Shown piece after piece: positions 5,637 to 10,012 of a DNA stretch of 64,000 bases (positions are counted from its first letter, which is position 1; every line of letters starts with the position of its first letter). The stretch comes from Escherichia phage AV124, in sequence record OR352954; one strand, given 5' to 3'. Under the pieces are notes generated by a model. The model was not told the origin of the DNA, ran no database searches, and was given only the letters and a program-made list of their open reading frames with translations. The position numbers and the translations under genes were made by a program.

Positions 5637-6314
5637 ATGAAAGAAGCTTATGATACTCTGAATGCTATGCTGCGCCCAACCTCTCTTGTTAAGTATGCGA
5701 AACATGTTGTAGATTGGAATTCTATCGCAGCCTCTGCAAAGGGTGAATTTACCCCATTGGAAAAGCAGTGGGAGTTTGTAGGAGAGGAGTTACAAGAAAC
5801 CGTTACAGCATTAATCGAAAATGACCGTAAGGAAGTTGTTGATGGAGCGTGTGATTTGTTTGTTGTGGCGTCGTATGCTTATTGGTTGAGTAATAACTAT
5901 TCGCTATCCTCAGATAAATATTTAACTTATAATCCTGACCTTAAGTTTTCTCCTGGTAAAGCTTTGGATGCTTTTGCGAATGATGACTATGAGGGGATGC
6001 TTAAATTGAGCACAGCTTTGTTGTTTGGTCTTGATATGCAATTGCATAAGAACATGCATAGCGTTCTGGAATCTAATGATTCTAAATATCCAACACTTAG
6101 TGAAATTCAGTCTTTGCATAAAGACCTTGACTTGGCAAAAGCCCTTGAGGCAGAATGCACCTGTATCGAACAGCGTAATGGTGGACGCTATGAAGGTGTT
6201 CATTTCTCCATTGTTGATGAGAATATGAAAGAAGAGCCACGTGTCGTATTCTTCGACAAAGGCGGTAAAATCATGAAGCCAGGGACTTTCAAAAAACCAA
6301 ACATTATTGTTTGA
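5637..6314 (+). CDS. hypothetical protein, possibly MazG-like NTP pyrophosphohydrolase
   Basis: EFVGEELQE ... DGACDLFVV resembles MazG EExxE/D motifs; weak. Confidence 0.3.
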   Translation: MKEAYDTLNAMLRPTSLVKYAKHVVDWNSIAASAKGEFTPLEKQWEFVGEELQETVTALIENDRKEVVDGACDLFVVASYAYWLSNNYSLSSDKYLTYNPDLKFSPGKALDAFANDDYEGMLKLSTALLFGLDMQLHKNMHSVLESNDSKYPTLSEIQSLHKDLDLAKALEAECTCIEQRNGGRYEGVHFSIVDENMKEEPRVVFFDKGGKIMKPGTFKKPNIIV

Positions 6315-6339
6315 CAATCGTATCGGGGTCTGTATAATG
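6312..6339 (+). promoter_or_regulatory. sigma70-type promoter (TTGACA-N16-TATAAT)
   Basis: Perfect consensus hexamers. Confidence 0.55.
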
Positions 6340-6366: not shown

Positions 6367-6591
6367 GTGGAAGAAAATATTGATTATTCTGAAATTGTTG
6401 CCTTGGCTAAACGCCTTAAAATGACCATCATGAATCGCGGGGCATCTTCCCGTCATGTTATCCGCTTCACAATGAAGCGTCGTTGGGGCGGCGTAAAGAA
6501 ATACGCTTATGAATGCACACTCGGAACTCTGGTAGCTCATGTAAACCAGATCGAGAGAATGGGCGGAAAAATTGTCGGAATTGACAATTAA
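6367..6591 (+). CDS. hypothetical protein (GTG start)
   Basis: AAGGAG RBS then GTG downstream of consensus promoter; track ORF 6307 start lies upstream of promoter. Confidence 0.4.
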   Translation: MEENIDYSEIVALAKRLKMTIMNRGASSRHVIRFTMKRRWGGVKKYAYECTLGTLVAHVNQIERMGGKIVGIDN

Positions 6592-6594
6592 AGT

Positions 6595-6622
6595 TTGACA
6601 AATAAAACTGAACGGTTATACT
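6595..6622 (+). promoter_or_regulatory. sigma70-type promoter (TTGACA-N16-TATACT)
   Basis: Consensus -35 and near-consensus -10, followed by AAAGGAG RBS and ATG 6654. Confidence 0.5.
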
Positions 6623-6653: not shown

Positions 6654-7013
6654 ATGCCACGTATGCCAAAAATCAAAATCGAACTGATCACCTCTCTGCC
6701 ATCTGACCCGGTTCAGCGTAAGCGCCTGAAAGATAGCGTAACTGAAGTGGTTGATCTCCAGCGTCAAATCGCTGATCTGAAAGACCAGATCAAAGATATT
6801 CGCTCTGTGGAGAAAGAAACGCATAATATCTCTCCAAAATTCTTCAATAGTCTCGTGAAGCGAGAGTATGATGTTCGTTTCGAAGCAGAAAAGAAAACCG
6901 CTGCATTAGAGGCCGAAAAAGAAGTCTTCACCGAGGCAGATATTCTTTTTGGTCGTGGAACACCCAATGTTGCACAGACTGAAGCAGATGATGGTGCTGA
7001 GGACACTGAATAA
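6654..7013 (+). CDS. hypothetical protein
   Basis: ORF with strong RBS. Confidence 0.5.
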   Translation: MPRMPKIKIELITSLPSDPVQRKRLKDSVTEVVDLQRQIADLKDQIKDIRSVEKETHNISPKFFNSLVKREYDVRFEAEKKTAALEAEKEVFTEADILFGRGTPNVAQTEADDGAEDTE

Positions 7014-7213
7014 TGAAATACTACCTAAATGGTGTTGGCCTCTTTGTCTTCATCTGTGTCGTATTCGGGTTTGGTGTTCCAACTCTGGTTTCTGCCAAAG
7101 ATACAATCAGTGTTATTGGCGGGTTTGCCTTAGTCTTCACTGCCCCGGTTGTCGTATGGTACTGGTTGCGTAAGGTCTTCATTCCGAAGACAAGCGCTGA
7201 AGGAGATCGATAA
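7013..7213 (+). CDS. small membrane protein
   Basis: Two TM-like segments; ATGA overlap. Confidence 0.4.
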   Translation: MKYYLNGVGLFVFICVVFGFGVPTLVSAKDTISVIGGFALVFTAPVVVWYWLRKVFIPKTSAEGDR

Positions 7214-7377
7214 TGTTGCTAAATCTGAAGGCGGCAACTTGGGAAAAGTTGCAGCACTTGGCAAAGTCCAAAGGTAAGTCTGCGGCATCTTATGTTGCAA
7301 AAATCGTAGATGACCACGTTGATGAAAACGTAAAGACTGAGTATAAAATCAAAGAGGAGAAACAAACTGATGCTTAA
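7213..7377 (+). CDS. small protein, possibly ribbon-helix-helix-like
   Basis: 54-aa ORF not in track; KAATWEKLQHLAKSKGKSAASYVAKIV pattern; stop overlaps SPFH gene start. Confidence 0.3.
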   Translation: MLLNLKAATWEKLQHLAKSKGKSAASYVAKIVDDHVDENVKTEYKIKEEKQTDA

Positions 7378-8260
7378 GAATATCAAACGCGTAGTATTTG
7401 CTGGACTGATCGCTCTGGGTGCAATTGGTCTGACTGGTTGTGAACGTGCAACTGTTCCGGCGGGTTATGTTGGTGTTAAGGTTGACCTGTATGGTGATGA
7501 GAAAGGCGTTCAGCAGCAAGAAGTCGGCGTTGGTAAATATTGGTTGACCTGGAACGAAGAGATCTATCAGTTCCCGACGTTTAACCAGTTGAACAACTAC
7601 GAACAACCGTTCAACTTCCAGACCAAGGATTCCATGACGGTTACTGCAAAGATCGGTGTTGAGTATTACGTTGACCGCTCCAAGGTTACCAAGATCTTCC
7701 AGACCTACCGTAAAGGCGTCCAAGAGATTACAGATGTCAACATCCGTCAGAACATCTCTGATGCGCTGATCAAAGAAGCTGGTACGATGGATATTGGTAC
7801 ACTTGCTGGTGATGGTAAATCTCAGCTTCTAGACCGAGTGACCAAGACACTGAAGCAGAAACTTGACCCGGTAGGTATCGTTATTGTAAAACTATCTTAC
7901 ACTGATGACCTTGGTTATCCTCCTCAGGTAACTGCGTCCATCAATGCTAAGATCGAAGCTACTCAGAAAGCTCTGCTGCGTGAAAACGAAATCCAGCAGA
8001 CTAAAGCTGAAGCTCAGAAACAAATTGAAGCAGCTCGCGGTGAAGCAGAATCCCAGCGACTTCAAGCTCAGGGCCAGGCCGATGCTAAAGTAGCTCTGGC
8101 AAAAGGTGAAGCAGAATCCATCCAACTGCGTGGTGATGCTCTCCGTAAGAACCCTGAAATCATGCAACTGGAAGCGATCAACAAGTGGGACGGTAAAACC
8201 CCGACCATTATGGGTGGCAACGGTGCAGTACCTTTCGTAAATCTGCCAGCAGGTAAGTAA
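7370..8260 (+). CDS. SPFH/band-7 (prohibitin/HflKC-like) lipoprotein
   Basis: Signal peptide with lipobox LTGC; SPFH core then Ala/Gln/Glu-rich coiled coil. Confidence 0.7.
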   Translation: MLKNIKRVVFAGLIALGAIGLTGCERATVPAGYVGVKVDLYGDEKGVQQQEVGVGKYWLTWNEEIYQFPTFNQLNNYEQPFNFQTKDSMTVTAKIGVEYYVDRSKVTKIFQTYRKGVQEITDVNIRQNISDALIKEAGTMDIGTLAGDGKSQLLDRVTKTLKQKLDPVGIVIVKLSYTDDLGYPPQVTASINAKIEATQKALLRENEIQQTKAEAQKQIEAARGEAESQRLQAQGQADAKVALAKGEAESIQLRGDALRKNPEIMQLEAINKWDGKTPTIMGGNGAVPFVNLPAGK

Positions 8261-8263
8261 AGG

Positions 8264-8292
8264 TTGACAAAAGGCCCGGTGATTAGTATCAT
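8264..8292 (+). promoter_or_regulatory. sigma70-type promoter (TTGACA-N17-TATCAT)
   Basis: Hexamers upstream of AAAGGAG RBS and ATG 8323. Confidence 0.45.
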
Positions 8293-8322
8293 CGGGTATC
8301 TACTTACAAAAGGAGATACACA

Positions 8323-8517
8323 ATGATCCGCACAAAAATTCTTATCGCAGCATTGCTGCTATCTTCTCCGGTATTCGCGACTGTAAACACTCTTGATTTG
8401 GTTGATGAATACACCGACGGAAGTTCTAAAGTCTGCATCTACAGCGACGGTAATCGCACAGAATCTGTTCTGAAAGAAGGTGCTGGTTCTTGTCCAAGTA
8501 AGAAAACATTTCATTGA
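8323..8517 (+). CDS. small secreted protein
   Basis: N-terminal signal peptide MIRTKILIAALLLSSPVFA. Confidence 0.45.
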   Translation: MIRTKILIAALLLSSPVFATVNTLDLVDEYTDGSSKVCIYSDGNRTESVLKEGAGSCPSKKTFH

Positions 8518-8521
8518 GGCA

Positions 8522-9031
8522 ATGATGCGAGTAACTGATAAATACGTATTCTTCTTCACATACCGGGATATGTTCAGTAATCACTACCGCCAAGTTATTC
8601 CTATTCGTTGTGGTGGTTACGAGTTTTTTACTGTAGAACATTACATGATGTTCCAGAAGGCAATGCTCTTCGATGACAAAGAAATTGCTTCCCGCATCGC
8701 TACGGTTGATAACCCGAATGAGGCCAAAGCTCTTGGTCGTCAGGTAAAAGGTTTCGACAACAGCGTCTGGGAAGAGAATAGAATGGATATTGTGACTTCA
8801 GGCCTTGTATTGAAAATGAAGGCCAACAGGTCTGTTCTGGAAGCGGCGCTTGGGCATCGGGATGCTGGTCGTAAGTTTGTGGAAGCCTCCCCTTATGATG
8901 CCATCTGGGGTGTTAAATTAAACGAATATGACACACGTATCGATGACCCAACCAACTGGCGGGGTTTGAATCTTCTCGGTGAGTGCTGGGAACGAGCTAT
9001 TGATATTGTTGTTGCTGCAACGTGGAGGTGA
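8522..9031 (+). CDS. NADAR / YbiA-family protein (predicted ADP-ribose N-glycosidase fold)
   Basis: FSNH, TVEHYMMFQKAMLF, PNEAKALGR, DAIWG motifs colinear with YbiA family. Confidence 0.6.
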   Translation: MMRVTDKYVFFFTYRDMFSNHYRQVIPIRCGGYEFFTVEHYMMFQKAMLFDDKEIASRIATVDNPNEAKALGRQVKGFDNSVWEENRMDIVTSGLVLKMKANRSVLEAALGHRDAGRKFVEASPYDAIWGVKLNEYDTRIDDPTNWRGLNLLGECWERAIDIVVAATWR

Positions 9032-9470
9032 TTTGAAATTAGAGATTGAACTAGTTCCAAAGACCGCGTGGTTTACTAATCTCCGATCTCGTCTCCCCAA
9101 AGCCCAGTGGGATGTTGTCAGAAAGAAGTGTTATGAGAAGGCCAATTATCGATGTGAAATCTGCGGGGGTAAAGGAACAAAACACCCTGTTGAATGCCAT
9201 GAGAAGTGGAATTTCGGAGACGGTAAGATAACTCTGATAGGTCTAATCGCGCTATGTCCTTCCTGTCATGAAGTCAAGCATATTGGTTTGGCAGGGATCC
9301 GTGGGCGGGGTGAAATTGCCCTTCGTCACTTTATGAGAGTGAATGAAGTGAGTCGCCATGTGGCAGAGAAATATGTTAAGGAAGGGTTTGATTTGTATCA
9401 TGAACGAAGCAAGCGCGAAAAGTGGGAATTGGATGTCCGGTATTTGGACGAGTATTTGAGTAAAGATTGA
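8979..9470 (+). CDS. HNH endonuclease
   Basis: CEICGG ... HPVECHEKWNF ... CPSCHEVKH zinc-finger HNH motif; start uncertain. Confidence 0.6.
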   Translation: MSAGNELLILLLLQRGGDLKLEIELVPKTAWFTNLRSRLPKAQWDVVRKKCYEKANYRCEICGGKGTKHPVECHEKWNFGDGKITLIGLIALCPSCHEVKHIGLAGIRGRGEIALRHFMRVNEVSRHVAEKYVKEGFDLYHERSKREKWELDVRYLDEYLSKD

Positions 9471-10012
9471 GAGGGCTAGTGGGTGATCGTGAGATTGAAG
9501 ATTTAAGGAGATGCCTTACATACGACCAATCAACCGGAATGTTAAGATGGAACAGTCGTCCAAGAGAGGATTTCAAATTCGATTGGACGTTCGAAAATTG
9601 GAATTCGAAGTGGGCTGGTAAGGAAGTAGATAGCATCGGAAATACAGGTTATTATCGCTTCTCTCTTAACTACAAGAGATATCTTGCACACAGAGCTATT
9701 ATAGCCATGACATACGGTTATTGGCCTTCTGTAGTAGATCACCTAGATGGTGACAAGTTGAACAATAGACTTAGTAATCTAAGGGCAACCACCCAGGCTG
9801 TCAACATGATGAATAAGTCAGGCTACAAAAACAATACCTCTGGTGTTACAGGAGTACACAAGAGAAAGGATAATGGTAAATATTCTGCATCGGTAGTCTT
9901 AAATGGCAAGAGAAAACATCTTGGCACTTTTGACACTATTGAAGAAGCCATTCGTGTTAGAGAAGAAGAACTTTCCAAGAGGGGGTTCTCCTCCTCTCAT
10001 GGAAGTTTCTGA
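9467..10012 (+). CDS. HNH homing endonuclease with AP2 domain
   Basis: HR...VDHLDGDKLNNRLSNLR HNH_3 motif then AP2-like GVTGVHKRKDNGKYSASV...LGTFDTIEEA. Confidence 0.65.
   Translation: MRGLVGDREIEDLRRCLTYDQSTGMLRWNSRPREDFKFDWTFENWNSKWAGKEVDSIGNTGYYRFSLNYKRYLAHRAIIAMTYGYWPSVVDHLDGDKLNNRLSNLRATTQAVNMMNKSGYKNNTSGVTGVHKRKDNGKYSASVVLNGKRKHLGTFDTIEEAIRVREEELSKRGFSSSHGSF

Follow-up and report, generated by a model that had tools for sequence, protein, structure and literature searches.

A two-transmembrane hairpin protein is the constant genomic partner of a widespread phage SPFH protein

Introduction

What does a phage do with an SPFH protein, and which of the neighbouring genes serves as its partner? 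These questions are raised by a locus of Escherichia phage AV124 within the stretch of 64,000 nucleotides (nt) analysed here (sequence record OR352954; hereafter, the window), in which a 296-amino-acid (aa) lipoprotein of the SPFH/Band-7 type is encoded. The initial annotation, made from the sequence alone, drew attention to this gene (7370–8260) together with an overlapping 54-aa open reading frame (ORF; 7213–7377) resembling ribbon-helix-helix (RHH) proteins, and the positions of both ORFs were as it described. The pairing of the RHH-like ORF with the SPFH gene that it implied was not borne out. This ORF was absent from 70 of 80 related loci, whereas a hairpin membrane protein gene at 7013–7213, just outside the region that had been singled out, was found in 79 of them. 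The three genes are as follows.

7013–7213, + strand: 66-aa hairpin membrane protein with two transmembrane (TM) segments (phrog_1130, E = 1.4e-26; ratio of nonsynonymous to synonymous substitution rates, dN/dS, 0.12–0.23)
7213–7377, + strand: 54-aa RHH-like protein (phrog_13358, E = 2e-38), with a TAATG overlap upstream and an 8-nt overlap, ATGCTTAA, with the SPFH start
7370–8260, + strand: 296-aa SPFH/Band-7 lipoprotein, with a signal peptide and lipobox in residues 1–24 (7370–7441)

The constant partner of the SPFH protein

Linkage was assessed in 80 IMG/VR loci encoding relatives 47–99% identical to the SPFH protein of the window (23 clusters at 90% identity and 10 clusters at 70% identity). 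A hidden Markov model (HMM) of the hairpin, seeded with seven members and iterated, was searched against all six frames of these loci. It matched 54 of the 80, every match lying directly 5′ of the SPFH gene on the same strand, and no match was obtained elsewhere in the six frames. A further 25 loci encoded, in the same slot, an ORF of 55–65 aa with two TM segments, the first of which (TM1) ended in Pro and was followed by a loop of the pattern x-h-h-S-S. The lone locus with no hairpin ORF directly upstream of the SPFH gene contained a truncated SPFH gene. The same pair was found in N4 (gp19–gp20), SSU5 (SSU5_061–062), phiE125 (gp44–gp43), Stx2_95, a Salmonella prophage and an Acinetobacter plasmid. 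Distant hairpins of this kind were recovered by genomic position and the iterated HMM; word-indexed searches with the hairpin and the 54-aa protein, both short, returned close relatives only. The constant partner of the phage SPFH protein is the 66-aa hairpin and not the RHH-like ORF.

The hairpin was predicted to have both termini in the cytoplasm (N-in/C-in), with a short periplasmic loop, P-T-L-V-S-A-K-D. Among 18 diverse hairpins, the Pro closing TM1 was nearly invariant, and Lys and Arg residues totalled 22 in the N-termini, 5 in the loops and 53 in the C-termini. The accumulation of these residues at the termini, with few in the loop, points to the predicted topology and places the conserved loop in the periplasm. 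None of the 18 members matched NfeD, a holin or any other Pfam family, and no PHROG that they matched carried a holin annotation. Identity as a holin or an NfeD protein was rejected on these two results, and membership of the class II holins also on the location of the gene, in the window, outside a lysis cassette.

In the record of the Stx2a phage Stx2_95 (LC567838.1), the hairpin corresponds to an unannotated 62-aa ORF (MRLYFTIVILL...KDKK; approximately 1816–2004) that ends at the SPFH start, and the SPFH gene itself is labelled 'serine protease'. This label and 'transposase fusion protein' are recurring misannotations in the SPFH family. As the hairpin ORF is missed in some records, including this one, it should be called together with the SPFH gene.

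Structure and anchoring of the SPFH protein

The 296-aa protein is a member of the SPFH superfamily. The Pfam profile Band_7 (PF01145) aligned with residues 28–215 over positions 2–176 of its 176 (E = 1.5e-21; 77.7 bits against a cut-off of 23.6), upholding the SPFH core proposed in the initial annotation, and the protein also matched phrog_200, annotated as 'lipoprotein' (E = 4e-91). The SPFH1 and SPFH2 domains occupy approximately residues 26–180, followed by a long helix (185–260) and a C-terminal KWDGKTP motif, which takes the form KW[DN]G.LP in the family. An AlphaFold2 (AF2) model built with 37 diverse homologs as input (predicted local distance difference test, pLDDT, 84) comprised an anchor helix, a beta-rich SPFH1, an alpha/beta SPFH2, a 76-residue helix spanning 185–260, a short helix and a low-confidence C-terminus; the single long helix agreed with the coiled-coil tail that had been read from the sequence. 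In a full-length comparison with the PDB using Foldseek, the top match was HflC (7vhq_G, 1e-14), and HflK (HflC and HflK in 7vhq and 7wi3), PHB1/2 prohibitin, stomatin, erlin, QmcA and flotillin were also retrieved, with E values ranging from 1e-14 to 4e-10 for HflC/K, PHB1/2, stomatin, erlin and QmcA. The modelled order of elements, SPFH1 and SPFH2, then a long coiled-coil helix and then a C-terminal segment, is that of the SPFH proteins in solved cages. Across the 37 homologs, W273, G275 and P278 were invariant (C-terminal W-x-G-x-x-P), and the stretch right after the anchor was highly conserved. Identity as an HflK or HflC ortholog was rejected because the scores were far below the equivalog cut-offs (46.2 versus 159.4 bits for HflK, TIGR01933; 26.2 versus 134.4 bits for HflC, TIGR01932).

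The coiled-coil region contains one further feature.

8039–8170, + strand: 66-nt tandem duplication, with GGTGAAGCAGAATCC at 8039–8053 and again at 8105–8119

The duplication supplies 22 extra residues, which correspond to a gap in most homolog rows of the alignment. Their absence from most homologs indicates that helix length varies between lineages, and the height of a cage presumably varies with it.

The N-terminus, MLKNIKRVVFAGLIALGAIGLTG followed by Cys, begins with a region in which K3, K6 and R7 are basic, continues with a hydrophobic core that is free of charges (VVFAGLIALGAIG) and ends in the lipobox L21-T22-G23-C24, so that the LTGC lipobox of the initial annotation was confirmed on reading. 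With a basic n-region, a hydrophobic h-region and [LVI][ASTVI][GAS]C whose Cys falls within positions 15–35, it reads as satisfying a rule of the PROSITE PS51257 type, and the layout is that of a predicted signal peptidase II substrate. The anchor type varied among 79 related loci: 44 had a lipobox, whereas the anchor of the other 35 was of the TM type or non-canonical, and in at least 19 of these it contained no Cys at all. The Cys-less and non-lipobox forms were 55–60% identical to the lipoprotein forms and retained the hairpin partner, and lipid and TM anchors are interchangeable in the family. The occurrence of either a lipobox or a TM-type anchor across loci indicates that the SPFH domain works outside the cytoplasm. 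An anchor that has no Cys should persist as an uncleaved hydrophobic helix, so that such forms must stay at the inner membrane with the domain outside, in the orientation of HflK/C.

Distribution among phages and hosts

Phage SPFH proteins had been regarded as uncommon in the initial annotation. This view did not hold: a tblastn search found homologs in 673 of 50,697 phage records (1.3%), and they were taxonomically widespread, including N4-like phages, SSU5-like phage-plasmids, Stx2 phages, phiE125, Bruynogheviruses, Ounavirinae, phiCbK-like and crAss-like phages, Kayviruses, Bacillus phages and haloviruses. When 5,426 complete E. coli genomes were examined, 536 of them (approximately 10%) carried a relative of the Stx-phage copy, on chromosomes as well as on plasmids. 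The cassette was kept by virulent phages, temperate phages, phage-plasmids and plasmids.

The pair was located in replication or early modules, and not in lysis cassettes, in the Klebsiella phage KB57, the Salmonella prophage and SSU5. The neighbours of the cassette are replication and nucleotide-metabolism genes, and in N4 the pair lies between virion-decoration/exclusion genes and early-region genes. The pair has the look of a self-contained cassette and not of a lysis-module component. GC hairpins resembling terminators, with T-runs, were observed directly 5′ of the hairpin gene in N4, SSU5 and the Salmonella prophage (L008, 2170–2250; L009, 1650–1745; L003, 5765–5815), suggesting that the pair constitutes an autonomous transcription unit there.

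Transcriptional organisation

The surrounding 2 kb region of the window was 94–96.5% identical to Klebsiella myoviruses of the genus Mydovirus (Vequintavirinae), among them KB57, KpS8 and KNP2. On the + strand, four ORFs are chained stop-to-start between 6654 and 8260, each with its own Shine-Dalgarno (SD) sequence as read from the letters. All four are annotated in KB57 and related records, the 54-aa product as a 'hypothetical protein' and the 296-aa product as a 'lipoprotein'. The remaining features of the region are as follows.

6595–6622, + strand: sigma70-type promoter, TTGACA-N16-TATACT (11 of 12 consensus positions), ahead of the four-gene unit 6654–8260
6654–7013, + strand: 119-aa DsbA-like (T4 Dsb-type) transcriptional regulator (phrog_639, 'transcriptional regulator', E = 4.9e-24)
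8264–8292, + strand: second sigma70-type promoter, TTGACA-N17-TATCAT (11 of 12 consensus positions), between the SPFH gene and the next gene
8323–8517, + strand: 64-aa predicted secreted protein (phrog_4641, E = 1.3e-31), with a cleavable-looking signal, MIRTKILIAALLLSSPVFA, and two Cys

Every Vequintavirinae locus, the Hena1-like ones included, retained both hexamers of the promoter at 6595–6622 in the same place, whereas the spacer diverged. This contrast provides good comparative evidence for an early promoter used by the host polymerase, which would drive the four translationally coupled genes at 6654–8260. In the AV124 lineage, the hairpin–SPFH cassette appears to be part of a four-gene, early, sigma70-driven operon. 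The first gene of the unit, for the 119-aa regulator, has a TAATG overlap with the start of the 66-aa gene; its product matched the Pfam family Phage_DsbA below the cut-off (E = 4e-4), and its dN/dS was 0.02–0.18.

Downstream of the operon, the gene for the 64-aa secreted protein was restricted to the same 10 of the 80 loci as the RHH-like ORF, all from Vequintavirinae, and its counterpart in Hena1 is annotated 'with signal peptide'. An 18-nt inverted repeat (8288–8305 and 8310–8327; 83% complementary) spans the SD sequence and ATG of this gene and may exert translational control over it. Upstream of the operon, a promoter with a perfect sigma70 consensus (12 of 12 positions) was observed at 6311–6338, 5′ of a small gene ending at 6591, and a tandem pair, TTGACAATTAAA and TTGACAAATAAA, of the form TTGACAA(T/A)TAAA lies at the operon promoter (6581–6606). 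Further downstream, two consecutive ORFs (8979–9470 and 9467–10012) occupy a position at which a single HNH endonuclease is annotated in KB57, compared with two in K54_rec1. Should both ORFs be HNH genes, a possibility based on position only, this suggests that homing-endonuclease content beside the cassette varies.

The overlapping 54-aa ORF

The 54-aa ORF is a real gene, although its distribution is narrow. In comparison with divergent relatives, the proportion of nonsynonymous differences (pN) was approximately 0.10 and that of synonymous differences (pS) 0.6–0.7, which is near saturation, with dN/dS of 0.035–0.08; such strong purifying selection indicates a functional coding sequence. It is also annotated in relatives (KB57_116 and Hena1 gp067). 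The conservation expected in the initial annotation was thus supported within a single lineage: the ORF occurred in 10 of the 80 viral loci, and its approximately 14 homologs were all from contigs of Vequintavirinae size. It is placed between two genes that in all other lineages adjoin each other and mostly overlap. The described overlap with the SPFH gene was also correct, except that the ORF does not end inside the start codon; its TAA (7375–7377) lies 3 nt past the ATG (7370–7372).

Evidence for an RHH fold was convergent, and every score remained under its family threshold. The sequence, LLNLK-ATWEKLQHLAKSKG-KS-AASYVAKIVDDHV, follows the strand, helix, G-x-S turn and helix pattern of RHH proteins. 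Pfam returned RHH_4 (E = 0.04, 14.4 bits) and RHH_5 (E = 0.12, 12.6 bits), both below the cut-off, and an NCBIfam RelB-like antitoxin model gave E = 8.9e-5 with 22.6 bits against a required 50. A profile search of the PDB gave three matches aligned alike (E = 0.18–0.39), namely AvtR, HP0222 and an anti-CRISPR chain; the first two are known RHH proteins, and all three look like DNA-binding proteins of the RHH type. The Foldseek list obtained with the model of the protein consisted mostly of RHH proteins with a root-mean-square deviation of approximately 1 Å, every match having E ≥ 0.7, and hhalign gave in-register matches to Arc and CopG. The AF2 monomer (pLDDT 67) contained helices only and did not include the N-terminal strand. 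RHH proteins fold as dimers. The sequence of the protein (LLNLK...GKSAAS...) resembles the strand, helix, G-x-S turn and helix pattern of the Arc, Mnt and CopG repressors and of RHH antitoxins, but the protein differs from them in its sub-threshold scores and in a conserved tail, V..V.T.Y..KEE, which has no known counterpart. The RHH-like character assigned in the initial annotation was therefore supported in pattern and not by any score above a family threshold. It is most likely that the 54-aa protein is a lineage-specific, probably DNA-binding transcriptional regulator of the RHH type and not a component of a membrane machine. No convincing RHH operator was found near the three promoters, where the only repeats were the tandem TTGACAA(T/A)TAAA pair and the inverted repeat over the next SD sequence.

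Exhaustive phmmer searches with the 54-aa protein returned five representatives, including one repeat protein of 5185 aa. This metagenomic protein, P0146, contains 16 stretches matching residues 12–37 of the 54-aa ORF, with a motif like FLQHLARSKKGSALSFVAG; the resemblance is probably due to chance or low complexity. In the Erwinia phage vEam_PM_21 (L014, 875–1498), a 68-aa two-TM hairpin, gp054, is followed by two other small soluble ORFs and then by the SPFH gene, indicating that additional small genes occupy the hairpin–SPFH junction in more than a single lineage. Classification of the locus as a type II toxin–antitoxin (TA) system was rejected on the distribution of the RHH-like ORF and the antitoxin threshold, the downstream gene encoding an exported SPFH protein.

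Comparison with known systems

HflK and HflC (7vhq, 7wi3) are the best cellular sequence relatives of the phage SPFH protein and match its full-length fold, with an N-terminal anchor and with the part that runs from the SPFH domains through the long helix to the C-terminus lying outside the cytoplasm; the bulk of HflK/HflC is likewise periplasmic. The phage protein differs in that it is only approximately 18% identical, is a single protein rather than a K/C heteropair and carries a predicted lipid anchor in place of a TM helix. It also has a distinct KW[DN]G.LP C-terminus and an obligatory hairpin of approximately 60 aa, and no evidence of FtsH binding was found.

The arrangement of an SPFH gene co-transcribed with a small membrane-protein gene recalls the SPFH–NfeD operons, such as QmcA–YbbJ (8z5g) and YqiK–YqiJ of E. 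coli and FloT–YuaF of B. subtilis. QmcA is both a sequence and a fold match of the phage SPFH protein; its bulk is cytoplasmic, whereas the phage protein is exported. Moreover, the phage partner consists of a two-TM hairpin only and has no NfeD OB-fold. The solved QmcA–YbbJ complex is a cage confining a membrane patch, and the HflK/C–FtsH assembly has been summarised in the same work (PMC12478178).

Among phages, N4 gp19–gp20 is an orthologous pair of a membrane protein and a lipoprotein with an 8-nt overlap, gp20 being 47% identical to the protein of the window. Unlike the window, N4 has no RHH ORF between the two genes, and no function was reported for either in the literature searched. The Staphylococcus Kayviruses also encode a small membrane protein, MbpV, and after it the SPFH protein MbpS, a pair noted previously (PMC7150955). 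However, the identity is only approximately 25%, MbpV has one TM segment and a charged tail, and the pair resides in the lysis region of a Gram-positive phage.

Proposed mechanism and alternatives

We propose that the locus contains a two-gene cassette, in which the exported SPFH protein builds an HflK/C-like periplasmic cage around the hairpin for envelope protection or exclusion, with the 54-aa protein serving as an RHH regulator. We consider this proposal about evenly balanced between right and wrong. Host sigma70 RNA polymerase would first transcribe the operon early in infection. The SPFH protein would then be exported and lipid-anchored, many homologs probably using an uncleaved N-terminal TM helix instead, and its long helix and the KWDG.LP segment at the C-terminus could mediate oligomerisation, giving a ring or cage on the membrane that faces the periplasm. 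Such a cage might corral a membrane patch holding the hairpin, with the conserved loop directed toward the periplasm. Finally, this phage-built microdomain would most likely serve to protect or insulate the envelope of the infected cell, for example, by superinfection exclusion or by resistance to membrane damage, which would be the least supported of these steps. Early expression together with retention by virulent phages, temperate phages, phage-plasmids and plasmids favours envelope protection or exclusion, and the action on the host membrane or in superinfection exclusion suggested in the initial annotation remains plausible.

Several considerations weigh against this proposal. Cage formation and enclosure of the hairpin are drawn by analogy with HflK/C–FtsH and QmcA–YbbJ, and distant SPFH homologs have other small partners, with one TM segment in Pseudomonas phage TL and phage RODI and three in Magneto. 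In Enterobacterales, lipoproteins with Asp at position +2 avoid the Lol system and are retained at the inner membrane. The residue following Cys24 is Glu, and the +2 residues of the 44 lipobox homologs were E in 18, S in 10, D in 9, G in 4 and Y in 3 (non-Asp in 35 of 44). By the E. coli rule, many lipoprotein forms would therefore go to the outer membrane, away from the inner-membrane hairpin. An HflK/C-like virulence factor of a Pasteurella prophage, unconfirmed as a member of the phage SPFH family, was found in outer-membrane vesicles (PMC9872710). The literature searched contained only speculation on phage SPFH function and no experiment on its physiological role; a 2026 paper describes the reason for the presence of SPFH proteins in phages as unclear and offers adsorption or DNA entry as a hypothesis (PMC13239085). 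For Kayviruses, the SPFH protein has been discussed as a possible help for Sec-dependent export of a transglycosylase (PMC7150955). The CRISPRi-ART paper contains no mention of a gene for an SPFH protein or a lipoprotein, and the phage SUSP1 of that work is not closely related.

Similarity to HflK/C raises the alternative that the phage SPFH protein, either alone or together with the hairpin, surrounds host FtsH or co-assembles with HflK/C in the periplasm and thereby alters the proteolysis of phage or host proteins by FtsH, comparable to the action of lambda CIII and HflKC on CII. The genes hflK and hflC were defined by their effect on lambda lysogeny through FtsH. The best cellular matches were HflK (TIGR01933, E = 3.7e-12) and HflC, the latter also heading the Foldseek list; the predicted periplasmic orientation is the same; and the gene is found beside int/xis in the early-left region of an Stx2 lambdoid phage, as well as in phage-plasmids. 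We nevertheless regard this explanation as unlikely. The bit scores given above fall well short of both TIGRFAM models, the fold is equally similar to prohibitin, stomatin and erlin, and the cassette is kept by the strictly virulent N4, Vequintavirinae and Kayviruses. No FtsH contact was identifiable in the sequence, and the obligatory hairpin has no counterpart in HflK/C.

The size of the hairpin, its two TM segments, N-in/C-in topology and charged tail fit the design of class II holins, which have two TM segments and a basic C-terminus. The cassette might accordingly be a lysis-timing device, in which a holin- or antiholin-like hairpin is restrained or organised by an SPFH scaffold to time permeabilisation. 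The pair of a crAss-like phage lies two genes from a peptidoglycan hydrolase, and in Kayviruses the SPFH and small membrane-protein genes are located between endolysin and transglycosylase, the authors having noted a resemblance to holins (PMC7150955). In the window, the Salmonella prophage and SSU5, however, the pairs are in early or replication modules and not beside lysis genes, and an early sigma70 promoter precedes the pair in the window. No holin family or holin-annotated PHROG was matched by the 18 hairpin members. Lysis timing is improbable.

A Lol-sorted outer-membrane lipoprotein could also act alone, blocking the receptor or the entry of other phages in the manner of T5 Llp or Cor, the hairpin being unrelated or an export helper. 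This would accord with Glu rather than Asp at +2, with the annotation of N4 gp18, encoded beside the pair, as superinfection exclusion, and with the activation of TLR1/2, as by lipoproteins, by the vesicle-borne prophage protein mentioned above, whose family membership is likewise unconfirmed (PMC9872710). The forms in at least 19 of the 79 loci that have no Cys in the anchor, among the 35 with no canonical lipobox, cannot reach the outer membrane, and the almost complete linkage of the gene to that of a hairpin in the inner membrane speaks for both products acting in one place. There is accordingly little chance that the lipoprotein operates in this way.

Finally, it is very improbable that the RHH-like and SPFH proteins form a functional couple, either an antitoxin–toxin-like pair or an autoregulator and its target that would explain the gene overlap. 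In favour of such a couple, type II TA operons have a similar order of genes and a comparable overlap to the 8 nt seen here, a weak RelB-like antitoxin match was obtained and RHH antitoxins are among the structural neighbours. Against it, 70 loci lack the RHH ORF, and in these the hairpin gene abuts the SPFH gene; a signal peptide is missing from the RHH protein, whereas the SPFH protein is exported; the antitoxin score is less than half of the required bits, with no known toxin family present; and vEam_PM_21 has different small ORFs in the same slot. A PADLOC-DB scan for known anti-phage defence systems was negative, giving only a chance-level match to SspF (E = 0.024).

Conclusions

The components of the locus are already catalogued as phrog_200, phrog_1130 and phrog_13358. 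Three points are new: hairpin and SPFH genes are strictly linked across phage families, a lipid anchor and a TM anchor can stand in for each other, and at this position the RHH ORF is confined to one lineage among the loci studied here. As annotation, the cassette is ordinary, yet it is common and experimentally accessible.

A broader version of the proposed periplasmic cage, which we hold to be unlikely, is that many unrelated phages, phage-plasmids and plasmids build an early, periplasm-facing SPFH cage around a dedicated hairpin, sealing or insulating the inner membrane either against competing phages that inject their DNA or against abortive-infection effectors that disrupt membranes. If true, this virus-encoded membrane microcompartment would be the first of its class among devices for exclusion or counter-defence at the level of the envelope.

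SPFH cages, such as those of HflK/C, prohibitin, stomatin and flotillin, are a current structural topic, and their contents and purpose are debated. The cassette described here would be a minimal viral version, with one SPFH subunit and one client or partner of approximately 60 residues, linked across at least 10 divergent lineages (70% clusters). Its role, once worked out, would explain a frequent phage 'lipoprotein' annotation, and the cassette, which is also present in the tractable phage N4, could provide a simple model of an SPFH protein and its client.

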